Part shown: positions 3,019 to 52,528 of the stretch, one piece after another | Layout: the number at the start of each line of letters is the position of its first letter | Numbering within the stretch: the stretch's first letter is position 1 | DNA from: a virus | Taxonomy: Duplodnaviria > Caudoviricetes | Reading direction: 5' to 3' (one strand) | Virus record (IMG/VR): IMGVR_UViG_3300048897_000037 | Location: 1 to 57,106 of that record | Length of the DNA: 57,106 nucleotides | Position numbers and translations under genes: made by a program | Notes under the pieces: model-generated | The model's input: only the letters and a program-made list of their open reading frames with translations | Databases searched by the model: none | Told to the model about the DNA's origin: nothing

Positions 3019-3092
3019 GCCCCCTGTAGCTCAATGGGTCAGAGCACTCTCACCAAAGAGAGATTCCCGTTCGAACCGGGACGGGGGCACCA
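3019..3092 (+). tRNA. atypical or pseudo tRNA (Trp-like CCA in a 6-nt loop)
   Basis: D arm GCTC/GAGC, T arm TCCCG-TTCGAAC-CGGGA, encoded ACCA end; shortened anticodon loop/variable region, bulged acceptor stem. Confidence 0.65.
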
Positions 3093-3129: not shown

Positions 3130-3762
3130 ATGGACTACGCACTGAAGATCAAGAAGCTGAAAAGACTGAAGTGGGCCTGCCGAGCGATCGTGGCGACCGC
3201 CACCTTCGTTTCGGTCTGGGCGAACCAACTCCAAGCACAACGCAACGGAGCGAGCATCTTCATCTCGATCATGCCCCCACTCATCGTGATGGCAGGTTTC
3301 GAGTTGGTGAGCCGAATCCCGATCAGTAACGGGATCTGGGTCACGAGGTTCACTCGGCCCGTGGTTACCGCCAGCATCACCCTGGGCAGCGCCTGGTTGA
3401 GTTACTTCCACCAGCGCGACGCCTTCGGTCGCTACACGACCGACGTTTCCACCATCCGTGTCCTGCCACTGCTCATCGACGGCCTCATGGTCATCGCGGC
3501 GGTGTCCTTGGTCGAACTGAACGTCCAGGTAGCTTTCCTGGAGACCAAGCAGGCCGGCCTGGATGTGAGGGTTGAGCGGGCCCCACGGCCGGCAACCAAG
3601 GTGGTCGCGAAGGCGCCGTCGGGCAAGGAGCGGATCGCCCTGGTCCTAGCCCAGGCCCCCGATCTGGCTATCAAGGAGATCGCGGCCAAGGCTGGCGTGA
3701 GCTACAACTACGCTCACAGCATCGTCAAGGAGCTTCGGCCTCCACAGGCCATCGGGTCATGA
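3130..3762 (+). CDS. DUF2637/SpdA-like membrane protein with C-terminal HTH
   Basis: 4 TM segments, AWLSYFH and LPLLIDGLMVIA motifs, C-terminal IKEIAAKAGVSYNYA; GAAAGGGG RBS. Confidence 0.75.
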   Translation: MDYALKIKKLKRLKWACRAIVATATFVSVWANQLQAQRNGASIFISIMPPLIVMAGFELVSRIPISNGIWVTRFTRPVVTASITLGSAWLSYFHQRDAFGRYTTDVSTIRVLPLLIDGLMVIAAVSLVELNVQVAFLETKQAGLDVRVERAPRPATKVVAKAPSGKERIALVLAQAPDLAIKEIAAKAGVSYNYAHSIVKELRPPQAIGS

Positions 3763-17915: not shown

Positions 17916-20900
17916 GTGGGACTGGGCAGCTTTTGGGACCCGAACGACCACCCTCGCGGGTGGCACGGTCGGTTCGCGAAGAAGTGGAAAATCTCCGACA
18001 CGCTTCGGAAGCTGCTCGACGGTTTCACCCCTCGTACGTTCCAGTCGGACAGTCAGGCTGGCCAGTACGCCTTCAACCAGGGCCACAAGAACGGGCCGTT
18101 CTCCTCCGTTGAGCTGACCCGGCTCCGCAAGGACTGGGACGAGGCGCAGGACCACATCAGGGCTGGGGACATGGATCCCCAGACCAAGGCCTTCGACGAC
18201 ATGATGCAGTCCCACATGCATCCGACGTCGGACGGCTTGATCGCCACCACTACGTTCGGCGCGGATGCCTTGGGGCTGCGACCCGACCAGTTGCACGACG
18301 GTCCGGGCGGCATCACCGACCTGTTCGGCACCGTGCTGGGCAACAAGGGATACCAGGCCGTACACCTTGGTACGGATGTCACGCCCGGACAGCATGGTCC
18401 CGGCAAGATCAGCGCCACCATCATGGTGCCGGCCGGAACCCGGGTCGCCTTCCCTGGCCAGTCCCCCCAGGACCGGGGCTTCTTCCTGGACAAGGAACAG
18501 CCCCTGCTCGTCACCCGGATCGACCCGGACGGCATGGGCGGCTGGCGCATCGCTGCGGTCGCCGAACCGCACCCAGGCGTGGGTGCCTCTCAGGTCAGCC
18601 AGGACCTCAACCCCGGTCGCAAGGGGGTAGGCCTCACCCCTGAGGAGCGAGCCGCCCGACTGGCGGAACCATCCACCATGCCAGCACCGGCCACCCCCCA
18701 GGCTGCCCCGGCCACCGAGGCCGTCATGCGCCCCGAGTCGGTGCAGGCGCCCGCCGTGGGCCGCACCCCGGAGCAGGAGGCGGCGCGGGTCCAGCGCGCC
18801 CAGGCTGGGCGGCAGGCCAACGTCAACGAGGGCAACCCCCCGGTCCAGGCCCCACTGCCCACGCCCAACCCTCGGCCAGCCCCAGCCCCACCACCGGCCG
18901 CCGGGCCCCCGTCGCCCACCGGGGTACCGGACCGCAACGAGCCCATCCACGCCCCCTCCATCGGAGGAACAGGCAACGAAGGCAAGTCGGCTTCTGAGAT
19001 TGCCAACCGGCCACCAGAGCCGGCTCCGGAGCCTCCACCGGCGCTGTCCCCGGCAGAGCAGGGCAAGTCGCTCAAAGACGCCTATGTGGAGAGTGGCATC
19101 GAGTCCCCGGCTGCCGGCCCGCACCGGGCTGCCTTCAACCGGGCCTACCTGAACGCCAAGAGTCAGAACGGGCACCCGGAGCAGGCTCTCCGCAACCTGG
19201 AAGCCGACATCAAGTCGGTCGAGGAGAAGGCGGCCGAACAGAAGGTTCACCCCAGTGACCGGGCCGACATGCTCACCGCCGAGGCCGATGCCAAGTCAAT
19301 GAACGACCTGGCCGACCTGATCGCCACACACTTCGGACTACCTCGGGCCAAGAAGGAGGAGAAGGCTCCTAGCTCCCCGGTGCAGCGCACCGGGGCACCT
19401 GATGAGTTCCTGGGCGAGAAGAAGCCGGGCGCCCGCGAAGCCCGCAAGGTGTCCGGGCAGCCATCCCGTAGCGCCACCGGCCTCACCGAGCACGAACAGG
19501 CCGGCGCCGGGCCAGGTACGGCCGGCGTGGGTGGGCGCAAGGAGGGGGCTCCGGAGACTCCCGCGCCGCGCGGCTCCACTGGCACCACCAAGGAGACCCA
19601 GAAGCCCACGGTCAGCGCTGCCCGGGTGAAGGCCGGCGACGTAGTCCTGGCGCGCAAGGATGAGAACGGTAACTGGGTCCACACGTCACGCAAGACGGGC
19701 GCGACTCCGATCACGGTGACCGGCAAGCAGACTGGCAACGGGGCCCACATCATTGAGGGAACCGATCCTGAAGGCAACAAGGTCACCCTTCAGCCGATCC
19801 GTGGCCAGAACGTTTTGCACCGCCACCAGGAGAAGGCGCCCAAGGCGCCGGCCGCCAAGAAGGCGGCCAAGGCTGCGGCGCCCCAGGAGAAGCCGCTCTC
19901 TCACGACGAGATCGCCAAGCGTTCGGCCGAGATGCTGGCCCGTCCACCGGCTACCGGAGGCAAGGAGCAGCCACCGCTAACCGAGGCGGATCACCGGGAG
20001 ATGCTGGCCGGCAACAGCAAGGATCAGCTCCGCAAGATCGGTGAAGACCTGGGCGTCTCGGTGTCCGATAAGGACTCCAAGGCGTCCATGATCGACAAGA
20101 TCGCACCGGCTGCCGCTGCCGACACCGCCAAGCGGCGGGCCGAACGCGTGGCCGGCGAAGGTCCGAGCCCGGCCCTGGGGGAGCGTCAGAGCGCCGACAC
20201 CCCTGCCGTGGACCGTGTTCTGAAGGCCTACAACGACATCGTGGCCCAGGGCGACGGACACGACCGTCGTGTGTCCATTGCGGACATTCGGGCCGAGGTG
20301 GGCGGCGACCTGTCCCGGGCCGAACTGACCCGGGCGCTGCGGGAGATTGGTCGCGGCAACTCCGAGCACGGCGGCTTGCTGTCGCGTGGGGTGAAGCCGG
20401 ACGCCCGCACTGAGGCCAGCGGCATGGACATGGGCGGGGAGAAGGTTCACTTCCTGCAGCTCCCGCGCCCAGGCGAGAAGGAGCGTGGTAAGGAGACCAC
20501 CCCGGTCCCGAAGGAGGAGCCAGCCAAGGCGGTCGCCAAGGCGGCCAAGGCTGTACCGACCAAGGCCCCTGCGAAGGAAACCGGCGACCAGGCCGAGGTC
20601 TCCAAGGTTGCGAGCGCCTTCCATGCGGATTGGCAGAAGACGCAGGCACCCGAGGGGTCTGGCCGCAAGCCCAAGTTCAAGACGACCAAGGACGAAGCCT
20701 GGATCAAGAAGCACGGCACCGATCAGGTCGATATCGCCAACACCTCGTACGCTGATCTGCCCGACGACTGGCAGAAGGAAAACCGAGACGCGGCGGAGGT
20801 AGTGCAGCGCATCCTCAAGGAGCACGGCGGCACTGTTGATCTTTCTGACGAGAAGACGCGCCTTGAGGTTGGCGACCAGATCCACAAGGCTTGGCTGTCC

Positions 20901-23900
20901 CGGGAAAACAACAGCCACGCCAAGGGTGGTGAGCTGGACAAGCCTTTCTCGGAACTCTCCCGCGCAGAGCAGGACAAGGACACCGACCAACTGAAGGTCG
21001 CCATGGAGGTCCTGTCTCCGGCGAAGAAGGGCGGCACCAGTCCCGAAACAGTGTCGGCGGTCAAGCAGGCGTACGAGAACATCGTGGCCCGGCGCGGACC
21101 TGATGGTGACCGCAAGGTGTCCCTGCAGGACATTCGCCAAGAGTTGGATCTGCAGCACGGCTTCAGTCGGCCCGAGGTCGACAAGGCGCTGAAGGAGCTG
21201 GGCCGTGGTGGGTCGGAGCATGGTGGCCTGATCAGCGGTACCACCAACCCCAGCAACCGGGAGGCCGCCGGGGCCATGAAGATGGGCGGCGAGGACGTCC
21301 ACTTCCTGCAGCTACCGCGTCCCGGTGAGGCTGGCCGTGGCGGGGAGGTCACGCCCAACGCTCCCGAGTCTTCTGCTGAAGCGGATGCGGTACGGAACCT
21401 GGCTCCCGCCGACCAGAGCATCTATCACCGTGCCCGGGAAAGCGGGCAGACTCATGAACAGGCCATGGCGACGGTGGCTACCCCTGCGCCGGCAGCCGAG
21501 GCTAAGCCCTTGGAGAAGATGACCAAGGCTGAGCTACTGGCCCACCCTGATGCTGCAGGAGCCAAGCAGTCCTGGACCAAGGACAAGATCAAGCAGCACA
21601 TCCAGGCAGCGCAAGGTGCCAAGACTGCTGCGGCACAACAGGAAGCGGCGAAGGTTGTAGGGAAGGCCGCCCCGCGTCCCACTACACCCATCGACAACGC
21701 CCCCCGGGCCAACGAGTTCACCAAGGCCTGGGACACGGCCGGGATCCCGGAGGCACCGGGCTCGGCCGGGCGCTCCATGAAGGAGATCCGCTCCGACCTG
21801 GCCGAGGGGAAGATCGATCCCGCTGAAGGTGTCCGGCGCATGGAGTCGGAGATCTCCTTCAACAAGGAAGAACTGTCCCAAGTGGAGGCTGACCTCCGCG
21901 CCCCGGACCTAACCGACAAGCAACGGGCTGATCTGCAGGCACAGCACGCCAAGCTCACCGAAGGAGTGAAGGCGCAGGAGAAGGCGTCCGAGTTCCTGCG
22001 CTCCCACTTCGGTGGCGAAGGCGACAAGCCCACCGTGGAGGAAGTGAAGGCGTTCCTTCCGGAAGGTTCGGAGCGCTTCCTGGACAAGGCAACCCCGGAC
22101 GAGATGCGAGATGTTGCCCGGATTCAGGGGCTGGACGAGCCGAAGGGCTCCACGGCCGAGGAGATGTTCAATGACCTGTTGAAGCAGACCGTTGATCGGG
22201 CACTCAAAGAAAAGCGGGAAGAGGGTGCCAGTAAGGCGGCCAAGGCTGAAGCGGCCCGCCTGAAGAAGGAAGCCCGAGAAGCCGGCAAGGCTGGGTTCCG
22301 ACCGGGCGGTGCCAAGCACCTGGACGCGGCGAAGATCGCCGAGGGTTTGGACCTGGGCGAGGACAACAGCTACGTCCAGGACGCCCAGGCTGAGCTGAAC
22401 GACGGCAAGACCCCGAAGCAGGTCGCCGACCGTGTTCGGTTCATGGCCCAGGGGCTGGCCAACAGTAACGCGATCATCCATGGATCTGTTGCTGCCGGCC
22501 ACGAGACGCCCGACGACAAGATGCACCGGGAGACCAAGCTCGCCGAGGGTCGGGCCGCCGTGGCCAAGCTGGAGGAACTGGCCAAGCGGATCGAGGAGTC
22601 CAAGCGCCCCCGCAAGCCTCGGGCGCCGTCCACGAAGCTGACCCCCACGGATCATGTGGCGGCCAGGGAGGCGGCCAAGGCGACCGGTACCCCGGTGGCC
22701 GAGGTGCGCTCCGCTATGGAGGACGCCAAGAAGGCCGACGCCAAGTTGCAGGAGCTGGGCATCCCCACCACGGCCGACGAGCTACACGCCCGGGTGATCG
22801 CGCGCGCCTCAGGGCCGTTCAATGACGCCAAGACCGCCGAGGAAGCACGCCGGGCTGCGACATCCATGCATGGCAACCTGACCCTGGCCGAGATCCGCAA
22901 GATGGGTGCGGAGCACGGCATCACGGGCCGGTCCAAGAAGGACATCACCGACAAGATCATTGAGCGCCGGTTCCCGCCAGAGCCAGGCGCCCCAACTCGG
23001 CTCACTGGTGGCCAGTTCGACCAGTTGAAGGCCGGCGACCCCATCGACATCCACTTGGGCGGCAGCAAGACGCGCAAGGACTCGGTGGCCAAGGTGGACC
23101 CGGATGGCACCCTGCACACGAAGGGTGGCTACAAGTACGGACCCACCAGCGACGTGCAGATCTCCCGGGGCGGAGCGGCCGACACCCGGCCATCCACGCC
23201 GGCTCGCAGCGCCCAGGTGGAGCGGGCCCGGAAGACGGCCGACGTGGTGGCCGAGGTTCACGAACTGGTGGGCAATGGGGCCAGCCCCGACGCCATCCGG
23301 GCCCGGCTGCGCACGGCCGGCCAGGCCAACGGAATCGACACTGCTGAGCTGCAGTCCCTGGCTGATGACCCACAGGCGCTCACCAAGGCGGCTGACAAGC
23401 TGGGCACCTCGGCCGGCCTGTCCCGGGTGGGGGACGTCGGATCCACGACGCCGTTCAACCGGACCAGTCACGAAGGACCCAGTGGCCGGGATCTGGGCAA
23501 CGGGGAGAACGTCCGGGTGACCCGTCCAGGCCACACTGCACGCCTCAGTAACGGCGAGGATGTCACCATCAGCCGGCCCAAGGTGCACCCGGTGTCGGCC
23601 GAGCCAGCGAAGGCAACCCCGGCGAAGCGGGCGGCCAAGAAGGCTCTCCCGGGCCCCCAGGCCAGTCCTCAGGAAGCCTTGGCGGCACTGAACAATGCGA
23701 ACAGCTCCACCACCCGTGAAGAGGCACACGGGATGATCGAACACTTCACGCGTGACGAGCTGATCAGCATGGCCAAGGAGCTGTCAGTTCCCAGCGCCAG
23801 CAGCAAGAGCAAGAAGGCTCTCCGTGATGACATCGTTCATGCGACGGTGGGAGTTCGAGCTGACTCTGAGGCAACCCGTGACCTTCTCCGAGCCCCGCGC

Positions 23901-24821
23901 GCCGGAGACAACGGCTTCCTGCCGACTGACCAGGAGCGACTGGGTGGCCGCCTTGCAGCGGCCAAGAAGGCAGCCAAGGGGGCCGGCCCGGCCGCTGAGC
24001 CACGACTCAGCCCTGCAGCGGAGCAGGCCCGCCTGGAGCAGGAGCGGGCTGACAACATGGCCCGGCTGGCGGCGGCCAAGGCAGTGAAGAAGGCCGCCCC
24101 GACCAAGGCCGCGCCCGCCAAGAAGGAGCGGTTCAGCGAGGCGGCGGCCGAGAAGCAGTTCGGTCCGCAGCCTGGGGAGGCCCGCATTGAGTCTGGCAAG
24201 TTCTCCGACAAGCCGTTGCGTCAGCAGACCTGGGGCGGCCGGGCTCAACCCAATGACGTCCGGTTCCACGAAGATGGAGCTATTGGCAGTGCCCTGAGTT
24301 CGATGGGCCAAGACAAGCGCCTGGATGTTGGTGGCGAGCCGCTCTACAACGTGCTGGGTCAGATCGCCACGGACGTGAACCGTGGAAACATCACCCCGGC
24401 CCAGGGCCTGGAGCGGTACAAGGCCTTGGCGGCTCGACTTCCAGAAGGCAGCAATGCAAGGAAGGAGCTGGAGTACGCCATCCAGAAGATTGACTCCCCT
24501 CCGCGCAAGCCAAACCTGCCAGAGGGGACCCCGGACTACCTTCGGAAGCTGGCTGACCGGTTGGCCGAGATCCCCATTGCCCGCAAGGATGTTGGACGCA
24601 CTGGACGCAAGGGTGAGCTGGACCAGGTGGAGGAGCTGGCCCGACTGTTGACTGACGGAGAGCCCAAGTCTCGATTCACGGCGCAATCCGCACTGGAGAG
24701 GATGATGGGTACCCGGCACGAGAGCGACAGTGACGCCGGGGACCAGCAGATCCTTGCAGCCATCCAGGAAGCACTGAAGGATGAGGAAAGAGCACGGATG
24801 GCCGCCCGTAAGGCGAAGTAG
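17916..24821 (+). CDS. giant multidomain head-associated/ejected protein (degenerate ART, wHTH x2, RyR-like, HeH repeats, GrpE-like)
   Basis: 2301-aa ORF in head module; N-terminal WDPNDHPRGWHGRF motif; domain motifs listed in findings. Confidence 0.75.
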   Translation: MGLGSFWDPNDHPRGWHGRFAKKWKISDTLRKLLDGFTPRTFQSDSQAGQYAFNQGHKNGPFSSVELTRLRKDWDEAQDHIRAGDMDPQTKAFDDMMQSHMHPTSDGLIATTTFGADALGLRPDQLHDGPGGITDLFGTVLGNKGYQAVHLGTDVTPGQHGPGKISATIMVPAGTRVAFPGQSPQDRGFFLDKEQPLLVTRIDPDGMGGWRIAAVAEPHPGVGASQVSQDLNPGRKGVGLTPEERAARLAEPSTMPAPATPQAAPATEAVMRPESVQAPAVGRTPEQEAARVQRAQAGRQANVNEGNPPVQAPLPTPNPRPAPAPPPAAGPPSPTGVPDRNEPIHAPSIGGTGNEGKSASEIANRPPEPAPEPPPALSPAEQGKSLKDAYVESGIESPAAGPHRAAFNRAYLNAKSQNGHPEQALRNLEADIKSVEEKAAEQKVHPSDRADMLTAEADAKSMNDLADLIATHFGLPRAKKEEKAPSSPVQRTGAPDEFLGEKKPGAREARKVSGQPSRSATGLTEHEQAGAGPGTAGVGGRKEGAPETPAPRGSTGTTKETQKPTVSAARVKAGDVVLARKDENGNWVHTSRKTGATPITVTGKQTGNGAHIIEGTDPEGNKVTLQPIRGQNVLHRHQEKAPKAPAAKKAAKAAAPQEKPLSHDEIAKRSAEMLARPPATGGKEQPPLTEADHREMLAGNSKDQLRKIGEDLGVSVSDKDSKASMIDKIAPAAAADTAKRRAERVAGEGPSPALGERQSADTPAVDRVLKAYNDIVAQGDGHDRRVSIADIRAEVGGDLSRAELTRALREIGRGNSEHGGLLSRGVKPDARTEASGMDMGGEKVHFLQLPRPGEKERGKETTPVPKEEPAKAVAKAAKAVPTKAPAKETGDQAEVSKVASAFHADWQKTQAPEGSGRKPKFKTTKDEAWIKKHGTDQVDIANTSYADLPDDWQKENRDAAEVVQRILKEHGGTVDLSDEKTRLEVGDQIHKAWLSRENNSHAKGGELDKPFSELSRAEQDKDTDQLKVAMEVLSPAKKGGTSPETVSAVKQAYENIVARRGPDGDRKVSLQDIRQELDLQHGFSRPEVDKALKELGRGGSEHGGLISGTTNPSNREAAGAMKMGGEDVHFLQLPRPGEAGRGGEVTPNAPESSAEADAVRNLAPADQSIYHRARESGQTHEQAMATVATPAPAAEAKPLEKMTKAELLAHPDAAGAKQSWTKDKIKQHIQAAQGAKTAAAQQEAAKVVGKAAPRPTTPIDNAPRANEFTKAWDTAGIPEAPGSAGRSMKEIRSDLAEGKIDPAEGVRRMESEISFNKEELSQVEADLRAPDLTDKQRADLQAQHAKLTEGVKAQEKASEFLRSHFGGEGDKPTVEEVKAFLPEGSERFLDKATPDEMRDVARIQGLDEPKGSTAEEMFNDLLKQTVDRALKEKREEGASKAAKAEAARLKKEAREAGKAGFRPGGAKHLDAAKIAEGLDLGEDNSYVQDAQAELNDGKTPKQVADRVRFMAQGLANSNAIIHGSVAAGHETPDDKMHRETKLAEGRAAVAKLEELAKRIEESKRPRKPRAPSTKLTPTDHVAAREAAKATGTPVAEVRSAMEDAKKADAKLQELGIPTTADELHARVIARASGPFNDAKTAEEARRAATSMHGNLTLAEIRKMGAEHGITGRSKKDITDKIIERRFPPEPGAPTRLTGGQFDQLKAGDPIDIHLGGSKTRKDSVAKVDPDGTLHTKGGYKYGPTSDVQISRGGAADTRPSTPARSAQVERARKTADVVAEVHELVGNGASPDAIRARLRTAGQANGIDTAELQSLADDPQALTKAADKLGTSAGLSRVGDVGSTTPFNRTSHEGPSGRDLGNGENVRVTRPGHTARLSNGEDVTISRPKVHPVSAEPAKATPAKRAAKKALPGPQASPQEALAALNNANSSTTREEAHGMIEHFTRDELISMAKELSVPSASSKSKKALRDDIVHATVGVRADSEATRDLLRAPRAGDNGFLPTDQERLGGRLAAAKKAAKGAGPAAEPRLSPAAEQARLEQERADNMARLAAAKAVKKAAPTKAAPAKKERFSEAAAEKQFGPQPGEARIESGKFSDKPLRQQTWGGRAQPNDVRFHEDGAIGSALSSMGQDKRLDVGGEPLYNVLGQIATDVNRGNITPAQGLERYKALAARLPEGSNARKELEYAIQKIDSPPRKPNLPEGTPDYLRKLADRLAEIPIARKDVGRTGRKGELDQVEELARLLTDGEPKSRFTAQSALERMMGTRHESDSDAGDQQILAAIQEALKDEERARMAARKAK

Positions 24822-24833
24822 AAGGAGAAGATC

Positions 24834-25004
24834 ATGCCCTGCGCTTGCAACGGTGGTGCGACTCAGTCGACGGCTGCCCAAGACAAGGAGTACGAGGTCA
24901 AGCTGCCCAACGGGCGCACAGAGTACGTGCGCGGGGAGCACGCGGCCAAGGTCGCGGCGACCATGGGCGGTCCCGGTACCACGTACTCCGCCACTGGACG
25001 CTGA
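24834..25004 (+). CDS. small protein (MPCACNGG...) of the kind found before actinophage capsid genes
   Basis: AAGGAG RBS, 56 aa, followed by terminator. Confidence 0.7.
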   Translation: MPCACNGGATQSTAAQDKEYEVKLPNGRTEYVRGEHAAKVAATMGGPGTTYSATGR

Positions 25005-25006
25005 AC

Positions 25007-25042
25007 GCAAAGAAGCCCCCACCGAAATGGAGGCTTCTTTGC
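25007..25042. terminator. bidirectional terminator
   Basis: GCAAAGAAGCC/GGCTTCTTTGC IR where the head operon and the antisense RNA operon converge. Confidence 0.8.
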
Positions 25043-25065
25043 TGCTGGCCTAGATCCCTCTACCA

Positions 25066-25147
25066 ACCCCACCCTGGAGGGAAGCTGAGCGACCCCGAAG
25101 GGTTTCTGCTACCTGGCTGGCAGCTTCGTCAGGCTTAACGGTGGGAC
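25066..25147 (-). ncRNA. type I hammerhead ribozyme
   Basis: minus strand GTTAAGC-CTGACGA-A-GCTGCC-AGCCA-GGTAGC-A-GAAA-CCC-TTCG-GGG-TC-GCTCAGC: complete core, GUC site, UUCG-capped stem III. Confidence 0.75.
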
Positions 25148-25192
25148 TTGCACCTCTCATCACACCTCACCAGCACGGAGAGGTCTTAAGCG

Positions 25193-25266
25193 TGATCCGA
25201 GGAGGGGTCGAACCTCCGACGCGCGGGTTAAGGGCCCGCCGCTCTTGACCGCTGAGCTACCGGATC
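25193..25266 (-). tRNA. tRNA-Lys(CTT), C33 variant, no encoded CCA
   Basis: GATCCGG/TCGGATC acceptor, GCTC/GAGC D stem, GCGGG-CCCTTAA-CCCGC, GGAGG-TTCGACC-CCTCC. Confidence 0.9.
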
Positions 25267-25273
25267 GGGTGGC

Positions 25274-25346
25274 TGGAACTGGTGTCCCAGTCGAGGGGAC
25301 TTCTACACGGTAGCGACCCGTGTTTTCGTGAGGCCTCAACCAGCCC
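25274..25346 (-). ncRNA. tRNA-like cloverleaf RNA
   Basis: GGCTGGT/ACCAGTT then CCA; ACACGG-GTCGCTA-CCGTGT; GTCCC-CTCGACT-GGGAC T-arm-like. Confidence 0.5.
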
Positions 25347-25351
25347 AACCG

Positions 25352-25427
25352 TGGCGCAGGTCGGATTCGAACCGACGATCTCGGGCTTATGGGGCCCACG
25401 GGGACGACCGAACTCCCCTACCGCGCT
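25352..25427 (-). tRNA. tRNA-Met(CAT), initiator-like, C33 variant
   Basis: AGCGCGG/CTGCGCC (A1xC72 mismatch), G11:C24, TGGGC-CCCATAA-GCCCG, GTCGG-TTCGAAT-CCGAC. Confidence 0.88.
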
Positions 25428-25431
25428 CTGT

Positions 25432-25493
25432 TGGTGCCACGCTGCTTGGACAGCCGCACCACTAGACCTGCTACTCCAAGCCCGCTGGTCCAG
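25432..25493 (-). ncRNA. kissing-loop RNA motif (copy B)
   Basis: CTGGACC..GGGCTTGGA..GGTCTAG plus TGGTGC-G-GCTG-TCCAAG-CAGC-GTG-GCACCA. Confidence 0.6.
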
Positions 25494-25500
25494 GTAACCC

Positions 25501-25529
25501 ACCCTACCCAGGCCTCTTGACGGTTGCAA
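25501..25529 (-). promoter_or_regulatory. promoter of the antisense RNA operon
   Basis: TTGCAA-N17-TAGGGT. Confidence 0.65.
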
Positions 25530-25545
25530 CATGTTGATCTACCCT
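25517..25545 (+). promoter_or_regulatory. promoter of the capsid operon
   Basis: TTGACG-N17-TACCCT, overlapping the divergent promoter. Confidence 0.6.
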
Positions 25546-25642
25546 TCGCCCAACAGGTGTCTGGCTTCTGTGCCGGCTTGCTGAGCGGTGGATGCGGCCT
25601 GTCCCTCACCAAGGATGATCGACTTCCTTGTGAGGAGTGACA

Positions 25643-27373
25643 GTGTTCCAAATCCCCGAGGACCTGGACCAGTTCAGTGTCTCCAGCTTGCAGGATCTGG
25701 CCAAGATCGCGCGTGACGAGTACACCGCGCTGAAGGAAAACGTCCGTATCGAGACGGTCACCGCTGAGGAAATCGAGCGCCTGGAGGAACTCCAGGGCTT
25801 CGTGTTCAGCACCGTTCCCACGGAGATCGCCGCGCGCCAGGAGCTGTCCGACCGGTTCACGGCGGCCACCACCGAGCCCAACACCGAGGAGCCGGCCGAG
25901 GAGGCCCCCGCCACTGAGGAGCCGGCGGTTGAGGCCGTCGTGGCCTCCACCAAGGTCACCGTGGCCGACATGAAGGCGGCCGGCGGCGGCAACACCGAGG
26001 TCACCCCCGCCGGGACGACCCGCCAGTCCTACTCCACGCTGGTCGCCTCGGCGACGGTTCAGGCGCAGGGCGGCAGCTACGAGTCCGGCCAGGTCCTGAC
26101 CAGCCTCCTGGACGTGGCCAAGGTGTTCGAGGCCCGCTCCATGGCCCACAACTCGATGGCCGCCCGTGGCATGTCCACGATGACCTCGGGCCCGGTGTCC
26201 TCGCCAGTGGCCCAGCTGGTCCGCAACTACCCGGACGAGTTCTCCGTGTCCGGCACGGATGACGACTACGAGAAGCTGCTCAAGGTCGCCAACGAGGCCC
26301 GACTGCCCGGCGGATCCTTGCTCGCCTCGGTGGAGCTGGACCGCAAGCGTCTCAACACTGAGGCCCCGTACCGGGACTCTCTGGTTGCCGCGCAGGGTTG
26401 GTGTGCTCCCTCGGAGACTGACTACGACATCTGTCTGCAGATCACCACGGACGGCCTGTTCGACGCCCCCGAGGTGCAGGCCCGCCGGGGCGGCATCCGG
26501 CACAACACGGGCCTGGAGTTCGACACGATCTTCGGCGACGGCACCGGGTTCTTCAACCTGACTGAGGCCCAGGTTGCGGCCGGCACCACCAAGACCTGCG
26601 TCGAGATCCCCTGCCCCAGCTTCACTGACACCCGACTGGGTGTCACCGGCCTCTGCCTGACCGGCAACATCCTGGCCATCCGGGGCTACCCGGAGATGAC
26701 CGCCACGTTCACCCGGGGTGCCCTGGCGGCGTCCGCGCACCAGATCAACCGGGAGCAGATCGCGGTCGTGGCGGCCGGCTCCACGGCGGTGTCGCTGGCC
26801 AACCAGCCGTACACCTCCGACGGCAGTGTCGTGTCGCAGGTTCTCAGCGCGGTCGAGATGGCCATTGTGGACATCAAGTACCGGCTGCGGCTGCAGCGCT
26901 CGGCCACCCTGGAAGTGCTCATGCCGTTCTGGATGGGCGCCCAGATGCGGGCCGACTGGATTCGGCGCAACGCCACCGGGTCTGGCCCGGACGCTCTCAC
27001 CCTGGCTGACTCGGCGATCAGCGCGGCCTACGCGGCCCGTGGGGCCCGGGTCCAGTACGTGTACGACTGGCAGGACGCCTTCTCCTCGGCGTCGCTGTCG
27101 GGCGGCGGCCCTGGCGCGGACACTCCGATGACTGAGCTGCCCACCTCCCTGCAGTTCATCGTGTACCCGTCGGGTACGTGGGTCAGGGCGGTGTCCGACG
27201 TCATCACCCTGAACTCGGTCTACGACAGCACCAAGCTGGCCACCAACCAGGTCACGCACCTGTTCACGGAAACCGGCTGGGCGATGTTGAAGATGTGCCC
27301 ACTGTCTCGCATCTACACCGTGGCCATCTGCCCCAACGGCAGCACTGGGGTTCAGCGCGCGGTGACTTGCTAA
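25643..27373 (+). CDS. major capsid (hexamer) protein with N-terminal scaffold-like region
   Basis: LVAAQGWCAPSETDYD, ARRGGI, K-C-EIPCP-F motifs of cluster-B-like MCPs; GAGGAG RBS (alternative start 25637). Confidence 0.88.
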   Translation: MFQIPEDLDQFSVSSLQDLAKIARDEYTALKENVRIETVTAEEIERLEELQGFVFSTVPTEIAARQELSDRFTAATTEPNTEEPAEEAPATEEPAVEAVVASTKVTVADMKAAGGGNTEVTPAGTTRQSYSTLVASATVQAQGGSYESGQVLTSLLDVAKVFEARSMAHNSMAARGMSTMTSGPVSSPVAQLVRNYPDEFSVSGTDDDYEKLLKVANEARLPGGSLLASVELDRKRLNTEAPYRDSLVAAQGWCAPSETDYDICLQITTDGLFDAPEVQARRGGIRHNTGLEFDTIFGDGTGFFNLTEAQVAAGTTKTCVEIPCPSFTDTRLGVTGLCLTGNILAIRGYPEMTATFTRGALAASAHQINREQIAVVAAGSTAVSLANQPYTSDGSVVSQVLSAVEMAIVDIKYRLRLQRSATLEVLMPFWMGAQMRADWIRRNATGSGPDALTLADSAISAAYAARGARVQYVYDWQDAFSSASLSGGGPGADTPMTELPTSLQFIVYPSGTWVRAVSDVITLNSVYDSTKLATNQVTHLFTETGWAMLKMCPLSRIYTVAICPNGSTGVQRAVTC

Positions 27374-52022: not shown

Positions 52023-52172
52023 CTTTGCCTGAACATGATCTTGTCCGGCCCGCAAGGCATCCTGGGGCCGGACGTTCTTGCCCGATTGGTAGCCACAGGA
52101 ACACACGGCTACGTAGACATACTCGCTGGAGAAGTACGGGTACTCCTCCAGCGATATTGAATGCCAGTTCAT
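51996..52172 (-). CDS. small CxC...H protein
   Basis: AAAGGA RBS; VAVCSCGY...DH. Confidence 0.55.
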   Translation of the reverse strand: MNWHSISLEEYPYFSSEYVYVAVCSCGYQSGKNVRPQDALRAGQDHVQAKLASPGTPG

Positions 52173-52528
52173 GACAAGATCCTTTCGTCGGTTACAGGCG
52201 TCCACTTCCCGCCCACCTTGATCTCCGTCTTCAGCTCCTCGGCCGGGATGGTGTACCCGTCCAGGACGGCCTCCACCATGGAGGCCCGGCCAGTCTCGAT
52301 CCTGAGCCAGAGCAGGAACTTCGGGTGCTCGGCCATGCGCCGGAACGCCGCCTTCTTGTTCTGCAACTGGGAGCGTTCCTCGCGGGACTCGCCCCGGGCG
52401 CCGGACGGGTGATGGATCACTCGGACCCCGGTGTCGCGCTTGTTCTGGTTCTGGCCGCCGGACCCACCGGACCGGAAGGTCTGCACCTCGCAGTCATGGA
52501 TCGAGACGGACAGGATGCGACGCCTCAT
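52169..52528 (-). CDS. RF-1-domain peptidyl-tRNA hydrolase (GGQ; ArfB/release-factor-like)
   Basis: EVQTFRSGGSGGQNQNKRDTGVRVIHHPSG...ERSQLQNKKAAF. Confidence 0.9.
   Translation of the reverse strand: MRRRILSVSIHDCEVQTFRSGGSGGQNQNKRDTGVRVIHHPSGARGESREERSQLQNKKAAFRRMAEHPKFLLWLRIETGRASMVEAVLDGYTIPAEELKTEIKVGGKWTPVTDERILS

Follow-up and report, generated by a model that had tools for sequence, protein, structure and literature searches.

The minus strand of the window (the whole 57,106-nt stretch of viral DNA analysed here) contains, between positions 25529 and 25005, a promoter-like site, a tRNA-Met(CAU) gene, an 84-nt cloverleaf-shaped spacer, a tRNA-Lys(CUU) gene and a 187-nt trailer, in that order (Table 1). 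The trailer is probably a structured RNA centred on a type-I hammerhead with an A·A mismatch at positions 10.1/11.1, in which the flanking sequences clasp the two halves together and the last hairpin acts as a terminator. Its sequence places it in a family that recurs in phages and is apparently uncatalogued; thus, the element is not unique to this phage. On balance, we favor a reading in which the cassette is a small tRNA operon, antisense to its surroundings and putatively transcribed independently, in a soil actinophage-like virus, and in which the hammerhead would provide a ribozyme step in the processing or turnover of the phage tRNA transcript, with a logic like that of the theta ribozymes.

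Table 1. Coordinates of the cassette, its parts and the neighbouring features.
Feature	Position	Strand	Remark
Small ORF after the 2301-aa gene	24834-25004	+	Stop 3 nt before the terminal hairpin
Hammerhead-containing RNA element	25005-25191	-	Whole trailer as one unit; starts 1 nt after tRNA-Lys
Strong hairpin at the end of the element	25007-25043	both	16 bp; z = -8.1; 0/200 shuffles as good
Terminal hairpin of the element	25040-25009	-	
P1	25183-25178 with 25158-25153	-	
Pseudoknot A	25175-25170 with 25048-25043	-	
Pseudoknot B	25145-25140 with 25073-25068	-	
Stem I	25139-25133 with 25090-25084	-	7 positions, one A·C mismatch
Core CUGACGA	25132-25126	-	
A10.1 and A11.1	25125 and 25107	-	A·A mismatch
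Stem II	25124-25119 with 25113-25108	-	6 bp
GAA (G12 A13 A14)	25106-25104	-	
Stem III	25103-25092	-	4 bp, UUCG loop
A15.1 paired with U16.1	25103 with 25092	-	
C17	25091	-	
Predicted self-cleavage site, 3′ of C17	between 25091 and 25090	-	From hammerhead numbering
P5	25082-25077 with 25060-25055	-	
tRNA-Lys(CUU), C33	25192-25266	-	ARAGORN; RF00005 55.8 bits
Cloverleaf-shaped spacer	25267-25350	-	12-bp closing stem with one bulge, three hairpins
tRNA-Met(CAU), initiator-like, C33	25351-25427	-	ARAGORN; RF00005 47.4 bits
Leader before tRNA-Met	25428-25500	-	No supported structure
Promoter-like site TTGCAA-N17-TAGGGT	25501-25529	-	Exact match; putative, weak
Promoter-like site TTGACG-N17-TACCCT	25517-25545	+	Faces the capsid gene
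Capsid gene	start 25637	+	

The hammerhead trailer

The initial annotation divided the trailer into a structured spacer, a hammerhead and a terminator; these are all parts of one RNA element of ~187 nt. The hammerhead itself was correctly recognized and forms a complete type-I motif (25139-25084, minus strand), although it is missed by Rfam. The core comprises C3 U4 G5 A6 N7 G8 A9, G12 A13 A14, the A15.1-U16.1 pair and an H17 nucleotide, and is surrounded by three helices with stem I open. The order of the strands (5′ strand of stem I, CUGANGA, stem II hairpin, GAA, stem III hairpin, C17 and 3′ strand of stem I) is that given for the type-I hammerhead (RF00163) in the available text of PMC3088659, and the stem III hairpin likewise begins with A15.1 and ends with U16.1. 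All core bases and all seven helices of the window copy are intact, and the motif is predicted from its sequence to self-cleave. The Watson-Crick pair expected at 10.1-11.1 (usually G-C) is replaced by A·A. According to section 8 of PMC3088659, this is the most conserved pair of stem II, and mispairs other than U·U cleave less well; U·U is the only natural mismatch reported in that section.

Additionally, stem I continues on either side into a conserved domain with two hairpins and two pseudoknots, which would tie the 5′ and 3′ halves of the trailer together; such a domain was not found in the available text of PMC3088659. In pseudoknot A, the 5′ hairpin loop would pair with the 3′ tail, and in pseudoknot B, the linker preceding stem I would pair with the 3′ hairpin loop. 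At the expected pseudoknot places, the window contains complements of 7 bp (A) and 9 bp (B). In cross-sequence controls, complements of these lengths arose in 1 of 26 pairings for A and in 5 of 26 for B; G/C-rich strands common to related members confound this comparison. Relative to the predicted minimum-energy fold of the 148-nt trailer, the hammerhead fold is less stable by 6.1 kcal/mol, and an upstream strand, GCUUAAG, competes for the 5′ strand of stem I.

In alignments, the terminal hairpin falls on that of the group-2 relatives and on the tail behind it. Its position directly behind the stop codon of the plus-strand small ORF suggests that it probably terminates transcription on both strands. 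Of the bidirectional terminator proposed earlier, the strong hairpin stands, but it goes unlisted in a terminator scan, since there is no 5-of-8 T run behind it; the 3′ arm is itself U-rich. Rfam terminator-type models match the hairpin weakly on both strands. RsmY and Thr-leader identities for the trailer were rejected, as their scores were far below thresholds and reflect the terminal hairpin.

Searches with the Rfam hammerhead models, run on 901, 201 and 65 nt and on the whole record, yielded nothing at E≤10, and the HDV-like ribozyme models in Rfam gave no match in the region at the same threshold. A hammerhead descriptor matched once in the window, and not at all in 400 dinucleotide shuffles (both strands) or in 1.13 Mb from 136 other viral loci; the descriptor and the search patterns were written after the window sequence was known, and 118 of the control loci contain a 15-mer of the window hammerhead. 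That 15-nt key, present in at least 118 IMG/VR loci, was discarded as a marker of relatives, the loci being chance matches whose flanks have no similarity. A covariance model (R1) built from four other phage sequences, with the window left out, found positions 25005-25185 over its full length when run on the 57 kb with filters off (19.1 bits, E 1.9e-4, next match 5.5 bits), and positions 25005-25189 at 22.2 bits with default filters; these E-values are rough, and a window score of 19-22 bits is modest. A 15.9-bit match of the same model in a relative (G001), antisense to two tRNAs, was treated as spurious.

Relatives in other phages

IMG/VR contains dozens of relatives of the element. A core-based pattern with A at both 10.1 and 11.1 retrieved 25 loci with many different stem sequences; stem II has at least 3 bp in all 25, and at least three contiguous stem-I pairs are present in 23. 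A flank-based pattern that left the core free retrieved 27 loci, in which 10.1/11.1 is G-C, U·U, A·A, C·A or A·G. The G-C-bearing homolog from an Enterobacter phage is scored by the Rfam model Hammerhead_1 (RF00163; 28.7 bits, E 7.5e-4), which links the family to known type-I hammerheads. None of the A·A members was scored by this model, and the window element, unlike RF00163 members, is matched by no Rfam model; surveys based on these models therefore undercount A·A members. A second link is the copy in Mycobacterium phage Gaia, which has U3 and A8 instead of C3 and G8, a core covariation described for true hammerheads in section 8 of PMC3088659. Two pattern matches were rejected as members: L143, the third match, lies in an apparent coding region with a poor stem II, and L161 has no stem I. 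A blastn search with a group-2 element found nothing. Hypothetical proteins are annotated over some of the members, for example Constance gene 68.

The fold is conserved across relatives. Among the nine members of group 1, 96.6% of cells pair, compared with 34-41% when the partner is slid, and 23 of the 36 pairs, with both pseudoknots included, change on both sides, a level reached in none of 500 shuffles. These compensatory changes indicate selection on the fold. The genomic settings vary and include tRNA arrays, spaces between ORFs and a site after the terminator of a capsid gene. A same-strand tRNA lies within 150 nt of nine of the 27 flank-selected elements; the Gaia copy begins 1 nt behind tRNA-Ser, and that of Mycobacterium phage phiGD24-3 likewise begins directly behind a tRNA and occupies the space from tRNA-Ser to tRNA-Trp. 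In one phage the two flanking halves occur in permuted order.

Three sequencing runs (X3, X4 and X5) provided near-identical variant contigs, in which parts of the stretch are uncovered, so that a missing part is not evidence of absence. RNA runs shared a fraction of 0.05 or less of the sequence words with the stretch and are no guide to expression. One X4 contig has exactly positions 25001-25189 swapped for 117 other letters, which points to modularity of the element, and in X3 and X4 a plain hairpin directly follows tRNA-Lys instead. Since these phages lack the element, it is not needed for the tRNAs. Such presence/absence polymorphism with exact boundaries, together with the very different settings and the permuted halves, would also fit a remnant without activity, or else a selfish, mobile module moving between phage intergenic regions and tRNA arrays; in either case the operon would gain only its terminator hairpin. 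The single-stranded motifs that are conserved in group 1 are missing from the window copy, which further scores low and carries the A·A mismatch. Decay, however, should strike the core bases first, whereas core and helices are complete here, and selection has acted on the fold across the relatives. A remnant or selfish module is therefore unlikely, and a functional ribozyme element remains the preferred reading.

A wider proposal is that these elements form an undescribed hammerhead class, in which stem I is clasped by the two hairpins and two pseudoknots and a mismatch at 10.1/11.1 is allowed. The class would be widespread in actinobacterial phages, occur also in enterobacterial phages, and lie repeatedly right after tRNA genes, whose transcripts it would process or regulate by self-cleavage; in the window it would be accompanied by two tRNAs with U33 changed to C33 that might escape anticodon nucleases. 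We put this forward tentatively, at somewhat less than an even chance for the proposal in its entirety. Type-I hammerheads share a phage intergenic setting with the window element according to the available text of PMC3088659. A search of main texts, few of them from subscription journals, turned up no report of hammerheads next to phage tRNAs and none of an A·A pair at 10.1/11.1; the supplements of PMC3088659 may list such members. Hammerheads are abundant in phages, where their jobs are mostly unknown; a covarying domain round the ribozyme and repeated adjacency to tRNAs would suggest a testable function, the processing or control of phage tRNA transcripts. The clasp also poses a structural puzzle, as it would replace the usual contacts between stems I and II and put up with mispairing at 10.1/11.1, where stem II is most conserved.

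Setting and other parts of the cassette

The view of the cassette as a self-contained, RNA-only, antisense unit inserted between genes of the head module is supported. ORFs in the cassette encode only 37-91 aa and all overlap the tRNAs or structured RNA, in agreement with the earlier statement that no credible ORF is present. The proposed insertion in the head module is borne out by five distinct related contigs (L002, which equals L006, L003, L004, L007 and L008; capsid proteins 62-73% identical), in all of which a tRNA upstream of the capsid gene is absent. L002, L003, L004 and L007 have only about 120-150 nt after the small ORF, and this stretch contains a hairpin in L002-L004. Just 290 nt upstream of the capsid gene are present in L008, and the sequence there is different. 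When the complete region was compared with the INPHARED phages by blastn, tRNA-Met was the sole match, and blastn-short of the cassette against the loci of the relatives matched only T-arm words. The capsid protein found no relative among genome contigs. An odd tRNA of the window at 3019-3092 was considered as a homolog of the CUA tRNA of the relatives, but is not clearly homologous.

The minus-strand promoter named by the initial annotation is present exactly as written, but a sigma-70 consensus scan (two hexamers, each with at least 4/6 consensus matches) gave no site in 24500-26000. TAGGGT agrees with TATAAT at three of six positions and presumably fits the TANNNT form common in actinobacteria; the chance expectation for the minus-strand pattern with up to two mismatches is 1.52 per window. 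Indirect support for this site comes from an X4 contig, which keeps 25496-25684 and replaces 25428-25495, which places the break about 5-6 nt beyond the -10 hexamer, at the expected start of a transcript. A second promoter-like site overlaps it back to back on the plus strand and faces the capsid gene; it is the sole match in the window to TTGACN-N16-18-TANNNT (chance expectation 0.84).

The leader that follows had been described as a kissing-loop RNA. This description is not upheld: the fold of 25428-25510 is unexceptional (z = -0.51, 49 of 200 shuffles as good), and the X4 contig carries 85 other letters in place of 25428-25495.

The spacer between the tRNAs had been called a tRNA-like cloverleaf. 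Its predicted fold is indeed a cloverleaf (z = -2.07, equalled by 5 of 200 shuffles), and a cloverleaf of equal or lower energy was found in none of 1000 shuffles and in 12 of 1902 real 84-nt windows, but it is not recognizable as a tRNA by RF00005 (nothing at E≤10, also when the search was confined to 91 nt) or by default ARAGORN. ARAGORN called it, as "Ala(cgc)" at 25275-25350, only at the 80% threshold, at which six extra calls, the spacer and five others, arise in 801 nt. A change in X4 (25348 A>G) converts a G·U of the closing stem to G-C, and X5 has 25312 A>G and one inserted base, which give an 8-nt anticodon-like loop. A 22-nt key from the T-like arm had no matches in IMG/VR. The spacer is probably either a decayed tRNA or a structured spacer, most likely the former.

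These results bear on the earlier interpretation of the whole cassette as a set of separate functional RNAs (a kissing-loop RNA, a tRNA decoy, a structured spacer and a ribozyme) acting with a GGQ-domain protein against host defence. The greater-than-chance stability of the cloverleaf and the change that keeps its closing stem paired are in its favor, and the ORF at 52169-52528 indeed encodes an RF-1 domain (PF00472, E 2.9e-16). However, a variant carries other sequence in place of the leader, which shows no significant structure; no tRNA model recognizes the cloverleaf, its anticodon-like loop varies in length and its key finds no relative; the spacer, ribozyme and terminator after tRNA-Lys are one element; and the GGQ ORF is linked to the cassette only by their presence in one genome. 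Such a multi-RNA system is thus very improbable.

The two tRNAs and the proposed path of the transcript

Both tRNA genes reported initially are called by default ARAGORN and score well above the RF00005 gathering score of 29 bits. Bacterial initiator tRNAs are distinguished by the lack of a Watson-Crick pair at 1:72 and by consecutive G-C pairs at 29:41, 30:40 and 31:39. The tRNA-Met has an A1×C72 mismatch, and thus no Watson-Crick pair at 1:72, together with G11:C24, G28-C42, G29-C41 and G30-C40; its 31:39 pair is C-G, flipped from the G-C of the nearest phage genes. Five of the seven closest phage tRNA-Met genes compared also have a 1:72 mismatch, mostly U1×C72.

In the favored reading, host polymerase would start near 25495, and RNase P and 3′ processing enzymes would release the tRNAs. 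The hammerhead would then cut at the predicted site and separate a tRNA-bearing precursor with a 2′,3′-cyclic phosphate end from an 86-nt 3′ piece that has a 5′-OH and carries the terminator hairpin. As the predicted cut lies ~100 nt from the tRNA 3′ end, it cannot itself make the mature end. The closest parallel is provided by the theta ribozymes, which, in the available text of PMC10879173, are small self-cleaving ribozymes directly beside phage tRNA genes, as the window element is predicted to be, and for which a part in viral tRNA maturation or regulation is likewise proposed. The theta ribozymes (PMC10879173) are HDV-like rather than hammerheads, have a cleavage site that abuts the tRNA instead of one so far downstream, and come from gut phages with recoding, whereas the element described here is found in soil and actinobacterial phages. 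If the proposed role is correct, the partnership of small ribozymes and tRNAs in phages, exemplified by the theta ribozymes, would have a second, independent example.

The base before the anticodon is C33 in both tRNAs, and the anticodon loop of tRNA-Lys reads CC-CUU-AA. All seven compared phage tRNA-Met genes have T33, and 37 other ARAGORN calls in the loci analysed, several of them duplicates, have T in 35, C in one and A in one. Position 25233, base 33 of tRNA-Lys, is U33 in two contigs each of runs X3 and X5, one of these U33 contigs being joined to the same trailer as in the window; C33 in tRNA-Lys is therefore recent. Lysine is encoded by AAG in 515 of 542 codons (40 long ORFs), and since AAG is already the main codon, rare-codon supply does not explain the tRNA-Lys gene.

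Because C33 occurs in both anticodon loops, these observations are open to an explanation in which the cassette supplies a tRNA-Lys and an initiator-like tRNA-Met with altered loops (C33 in both, and the flipped 31:39 pair in tRNA-Met) that host anticodon nucleases could not cut, the hammerhead being transcript plumbing. This anti-defence supply, which is compatible with hammerhead processing of the transcript, is possible but on the doubtful side. The available text of PMC10264068 names tRNA-Lys and initiator tRNA as classic nuclease targets and argues that anticodon-loop changes in phage tRNAs block VapC-, PrrC- and colicin-type enzymes; the tRNAs described there resemble those of the window in having anticodon loops off the norm at or near nuclease cleavage sites. 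They come from tRNA-rich mycobacteriophages and enteric phages, and position 33 is not treated (no occurrence in a search of the available text of PMC10264068). Drift in a dispensable gene, with C33 as a mildly harmful mutation, would explain the change just as well, and two observations are a small sample. Two neighbouring C33 phage tRNAs would be a clean test case for the idea of nuclease-resistant phage tRNAs.

Structured non-tRNA RNA beside phage tRNAs has a precedent in the tRNA cluster of phage T4, in which small stable RNAs of this kind, of unknown function, are co-transcribed with the tRNAs; to our knowledge, none of them contains a ribozyme.

Genomic setting of the cassette and its tRNAs

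The window, an IMG/VR virus record of 57,106 bases with an estimated completeness of 88% and a G+C content of 64%, encodes a capsid protein with 45% identity to that of Actinoplanes phage phiAsp2; many other actinophage capsids are more distant relatives. The minus-strand RNA cassette occupies the gap between a small ORF and the capsid gene (see table). Because none of the IMG/VR and metagenome contigs compared, whose capsids are 62-73% identical (L002, the same as L006, L003, L004, L007 and L008), has a tRNA upstream of the capsid gene, the cassette is an insertion. Only ~120-150 nt follow the homologous small ORF in L002, L003, L004 and L007, with a hairpin in this stretch in L002-L004, and L008 has a different sequence in the 290 nt that its contig provides upstream of the capsid gene. 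Another contig, L005 (94% identical), ends at the capsid start. The genomes of these relatives have other tRNAs at other places.

Coordinates of the features discussed (window positions unless a locus is named)
Feature	Coordinates	Strand	Remarks
tRNA-like gene	3019-3092	+	
2301-aa ORF	17916-24821		
Small ORF	24834-25004	+	weak DUF7196 match; comes after 2301-aa ORF
R1 match	25005-25185	-	
16-bp hairpin	25007-25043		
tRNA-Lys(CUU)	25192-25266	-	ARAGORN, Rfam
tRNA-Met(CAU)	25351-25427	-	ARAGORN, Rfam
Promoter-like site	25517-25545	+	
Capsid gene	25637-27373	+	
RF-1-domain ORF	52169-52528	-	119 aa
tRNA loci of G001/G002	L133 1365-1435; L134 1599-1669; L135 1500-1575; L136 1501-1576; L130-L132		
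Skipping-rope match	L141 3589-3683	-	
Second R1 match	L147 4019-4125	+	
Gaia match	L167 1201-1349		
Constance element	L168 1201-1348		
SDFMU_EhYP element	L170 1163-1340		

ARAGORN and Rfam concur on both tRNAs of the initial annotation. The tRNA-Met is initiator-like, with a 1:72 mismatch, a purine 11:pyrimidine 24 pair and successive G-C pairs in its anticodon stem, and differs from its nearest phage homologs by U33C and a flipped 31:39 pair. U33 is near-universal in tRNAs; both cassette tRNAs have C at this position (25233 in tRNA-Lys and 25392 in tRNA-Met, minus strand), and the base before the anticodon in 37 other ARAGORN calls from the loci examined, several of them duplicates, is T in 35, C in one and A in one. 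The C33 of tRNA-Lys is recent and polymorphic, because contigs from sequencing runs X3 and X5 read U33 at 25233; one such contig runs on into the same trailer as the window's. AAG accounts for 95% of the Lys codons, and therefore rare-codon supply is not the reason for the tRNA-Lys gene. Loop changes in phage tRNAs are hypothesized to defeat host tRNA nucleases (PMC10264068), a proposal that the C33 tRNAs fit; position 33 is not treated in that article.

The spacer between the two tRNAs, previously described as a tRNA-like cloverleaf, does fold as a cloverleaf with a stability above chance, but it matches no tRNA model, and the threshold needed for ARAGORN to report it gives false calls as well. 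One variant base converts a G.U to a G-C pair in its closing stem, and another variant has an anticodon-like loop one base longer. Our interpretation is that it is a decayed tRNA or a structured spacer.

The promoter proposed for the cassette (TTGCAA-N17-TAGGGT) is present letter for letter, but it is not called by a consensus scan and carries no statistical weight. Its best indirect support is a break point in a nearly identical 986-nt contig of run X4, in which 25428-25495 are swapped for 85 other letters and the window sequence is rejoined at 25496, a few bases past the -10 hexamer. The exchanged part is the very leader that had been described as a kissing-loop RNA, which has no more structure than shuffles (z = -0.51). 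The sole window match to TTGACN-N16-18-TANNNT, on the plus strand ~90 nt ahead of the start of the capsid gene, overlaps the minus-strand site back to back, which suggests a divergent promoter pair.

Elsewhere in the window, the intergenic gap ahead of an ORF starting at 3130 contains a third tRNA-like gene with a 6-nt anticodon loop and the ARAGORN anticodon 'cc'; RF00005 scores it at 40.7 bits when searched locally, and it is absent from the whole-window gathering search. The related phages G001 and G002 have tRNA-Leu(GAG), tRNA-Leu(CAA) and tRNA-Met, a tRNA whose anticodon loop has 6 nt ('tt'), an amber-suppressor-like tRNA with a CUA anticodon, and interrupted or truncated tRNA pieces in their arrays. 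An ORF with an RF-1 (GGQ) domain (PF00472, E 2.9e-16) is similar to small peptidyl-tRNA hydrolase or ribosome-rescue factors; nothing was found that links it to the cassette.

A hammerhead core with structured flanks

The hammerhead of the initial annotation is readable on the minus strand under standard numbering as the stem I 5' strand, CUGACGA, A, a 6-bp stem II, A, GAA, a 4-bp stem III (A15.1 to U16.1, UUCG loop), C17 and the stem I 3' strand, although the Rfam hammerhead models give no match in the window at E<=10, even when only 65 nt are searched. A descriptor of hammerhead features with a 10.1/11.1 mismatch permitted matches once in the window, and neither in 400 dinucleotide shuffles of it (both strands) nor in 1.13 Mb of other viral loci, 118 of them chosen for the same 15-mer; these numbers are somewhat weakened by the descriptor having been written with the sequence already seen. 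The 16-bp hairpin is far above shuffles in stability (z = -8.1).

An IMG/VR search with a pattern keeping the core, two extra A's and stem III gave three loci, two of which are full hammerheads whose stems I and II differ. A second pattern, which itself fixes three stem-III pairs and the first stem-II pair, gave 25 loci. Stem II is longer than forced in all 25, and at least three contiguous stem-I pairs, in many different sequences, are present in 23; the exceptions are L158 (two contiguous pairs) and L161 (none). Most of the G+C-rich copies belong to tRNA arrays and share the strand of the tRNAs. Eight of the 25 are AT-rich and lie between ORFs. In a group of AT-rich phage contigs (L144, L145, L146, L150, L152, L159, L162 and L166), the A.A hammerhead recurs without the large flanks; its stem II is 8-9 bp long, and it lies directly after a stop codon and shortly ahead of the next gene's ribosome-binding site.

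Nine G+C-rich members (alignment A2, ~150 nt) share a 5' hairpin and a 3' hairpin with two pseudoknots, between the 5' hairpin loop and the 3' tail and between the pre-stem-I linker and the 3' hairpin loop; we call this flank domain the clasp. Pairing is present in 96.6% of cells and falls to 34-41% once the partners are shifted by 1-3 columns, both sides change in 23 of the 36 pairs, both pseudoknots covary, and none of 500 shuffles attains the observed pairing values. Four further members (alignment A4) show the same architecture with other letters plus a terminal hairpin, and the window's trailer aligns with them in the flanks, including the tail past the terminal hairpin. A covariance model from these four sequences, excluding the window (R1), has a single credible match in the whole window, at full model length (19.1 bits, E 1.9e-4; 22.2 bits with default filters; next-best match 5.5 bits). 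Therefore, what had been annotated as a separate structured spacer, hammerhead and terminator is one RNA.

In the X4 contig exactly 25001-25189 are exchanged for 117 other letters, and a loose end from run X3 has a plain hairpin directly 3' of tRNA-Lys. The element is thus a discrete, exchangeable module that the tRNAs do not need. The first element of L147 is followed ~90 nt downstream by a weak second R1 match (20 bits), possibly a degenerate tandem copy. L141, a 125-kb high-GC phage contig, has a clasped hammerhead and, ~200 nt downstream of it, a below-threshold match to skipping-rope RNA (28.5 bits; gathering 36.7).

Relationship to the hammerhead family

Three observations argue that the element belongs to the true hammerhead family. 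First, a pattern of the 3' flank only, with the core left free, gave 27 loci, all with cores that read as hammerheads except L172, in which the script located none; their 10.1/11.1 positions are G-C, U.U, A.A, C.A or A.G. Second, Rfam Hammerhead_1 scores the G-C copy of Enterobacter phage SDFMU_EhYP (28.7 bits, E 7.5e-4) and gives no match to the A.A copies of Gaia and phiGD24-3 (same search) or of five other records; the 10.1/11.1 mismatch therefore explains the Rfam blind spot. Third, C3 and G8 are replaced by U3 and A8 in the Gaia copy, a core covariation known from natural hammerheads (PMC3088659, section 8). The same section describes 10.1/11.1 as the most conserved pair after 15.1-16.1, and reports a natural U.U mismatch there and lower activity of other mispairs in earlier mutagenesis.

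The clasp is circularly permuted in the SDFMU_EhYP copy: behind its canonical G-C hammerhead come first the 3' flank domain and then the 5' one, which suggests that the clasp is a separate domain. The capsid genes of this phage are followed by a terminator-like hairpin, and the copy sits between that hairpin and the gene for tail tubular protein A. The element is not represented by a family in Rfam 15, and neither a hammerhead next to phage tRNAs nor an A.A pair at 10.1/11.1 nor the clasp is described in the literature covered, which is incomplete; the supplements of PMC3088659 may list some members.

tRNA neighborhood and predicted cleavage

In 9 of the 27 flank-selected elements, a same-strand tRNA is no more than 150 nt away from where the element is estimated to end on either side. 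The window's element begins 1 nt past tRNA-Lys, the BLAST match in Mycobacterium phage Gaia begins 1 nt past tRNA-Ser(cga), and that of M. abscessus phage phiGD24-3 occupies the gap between tRNA-Ser(tga) and tRNA-Trp.

We infer the following mechanism, self-cleavage included. The transcript would be cut at the predicted site between 25091 and 25090, so that the part bearing the tRNAs would end in a cyclic phosphate and an 86-nt piece with the terminator hairpin would be released. The predicted cut is ~100 nt from the tRNA end, so the mature terminus would not be made by it. One role of cleavage could be to detach the tRNAs from a 3' hairpin that resists nucleases, another to separate neighboring tRNAs in arrays. 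Three features speak against activity: the window's motif has the 10.1/11.1 mismatch, the predicted energy minimum beats the hammerhead fold by 6.1 kcal/mol, and stem I faces competition from an upstream strand. In logic, the closest precedent is the theta ribozymes, which lie beside phage tRNAs and are proposed to act in tRNA maturation or regulation (PMC10879173); these are HDV-like, whereas the window's element is built on a hammerhead.

The element of Arthrobacter phage Constance has no annotated tRNA beside it and is largely overlapped by gene 68 ('hypothetical protein'), which may be a spurious protein call on top of an RNA gene. Gaia gene 147, also a 'hypothetical protein', overlaps the element by ~10 nt.
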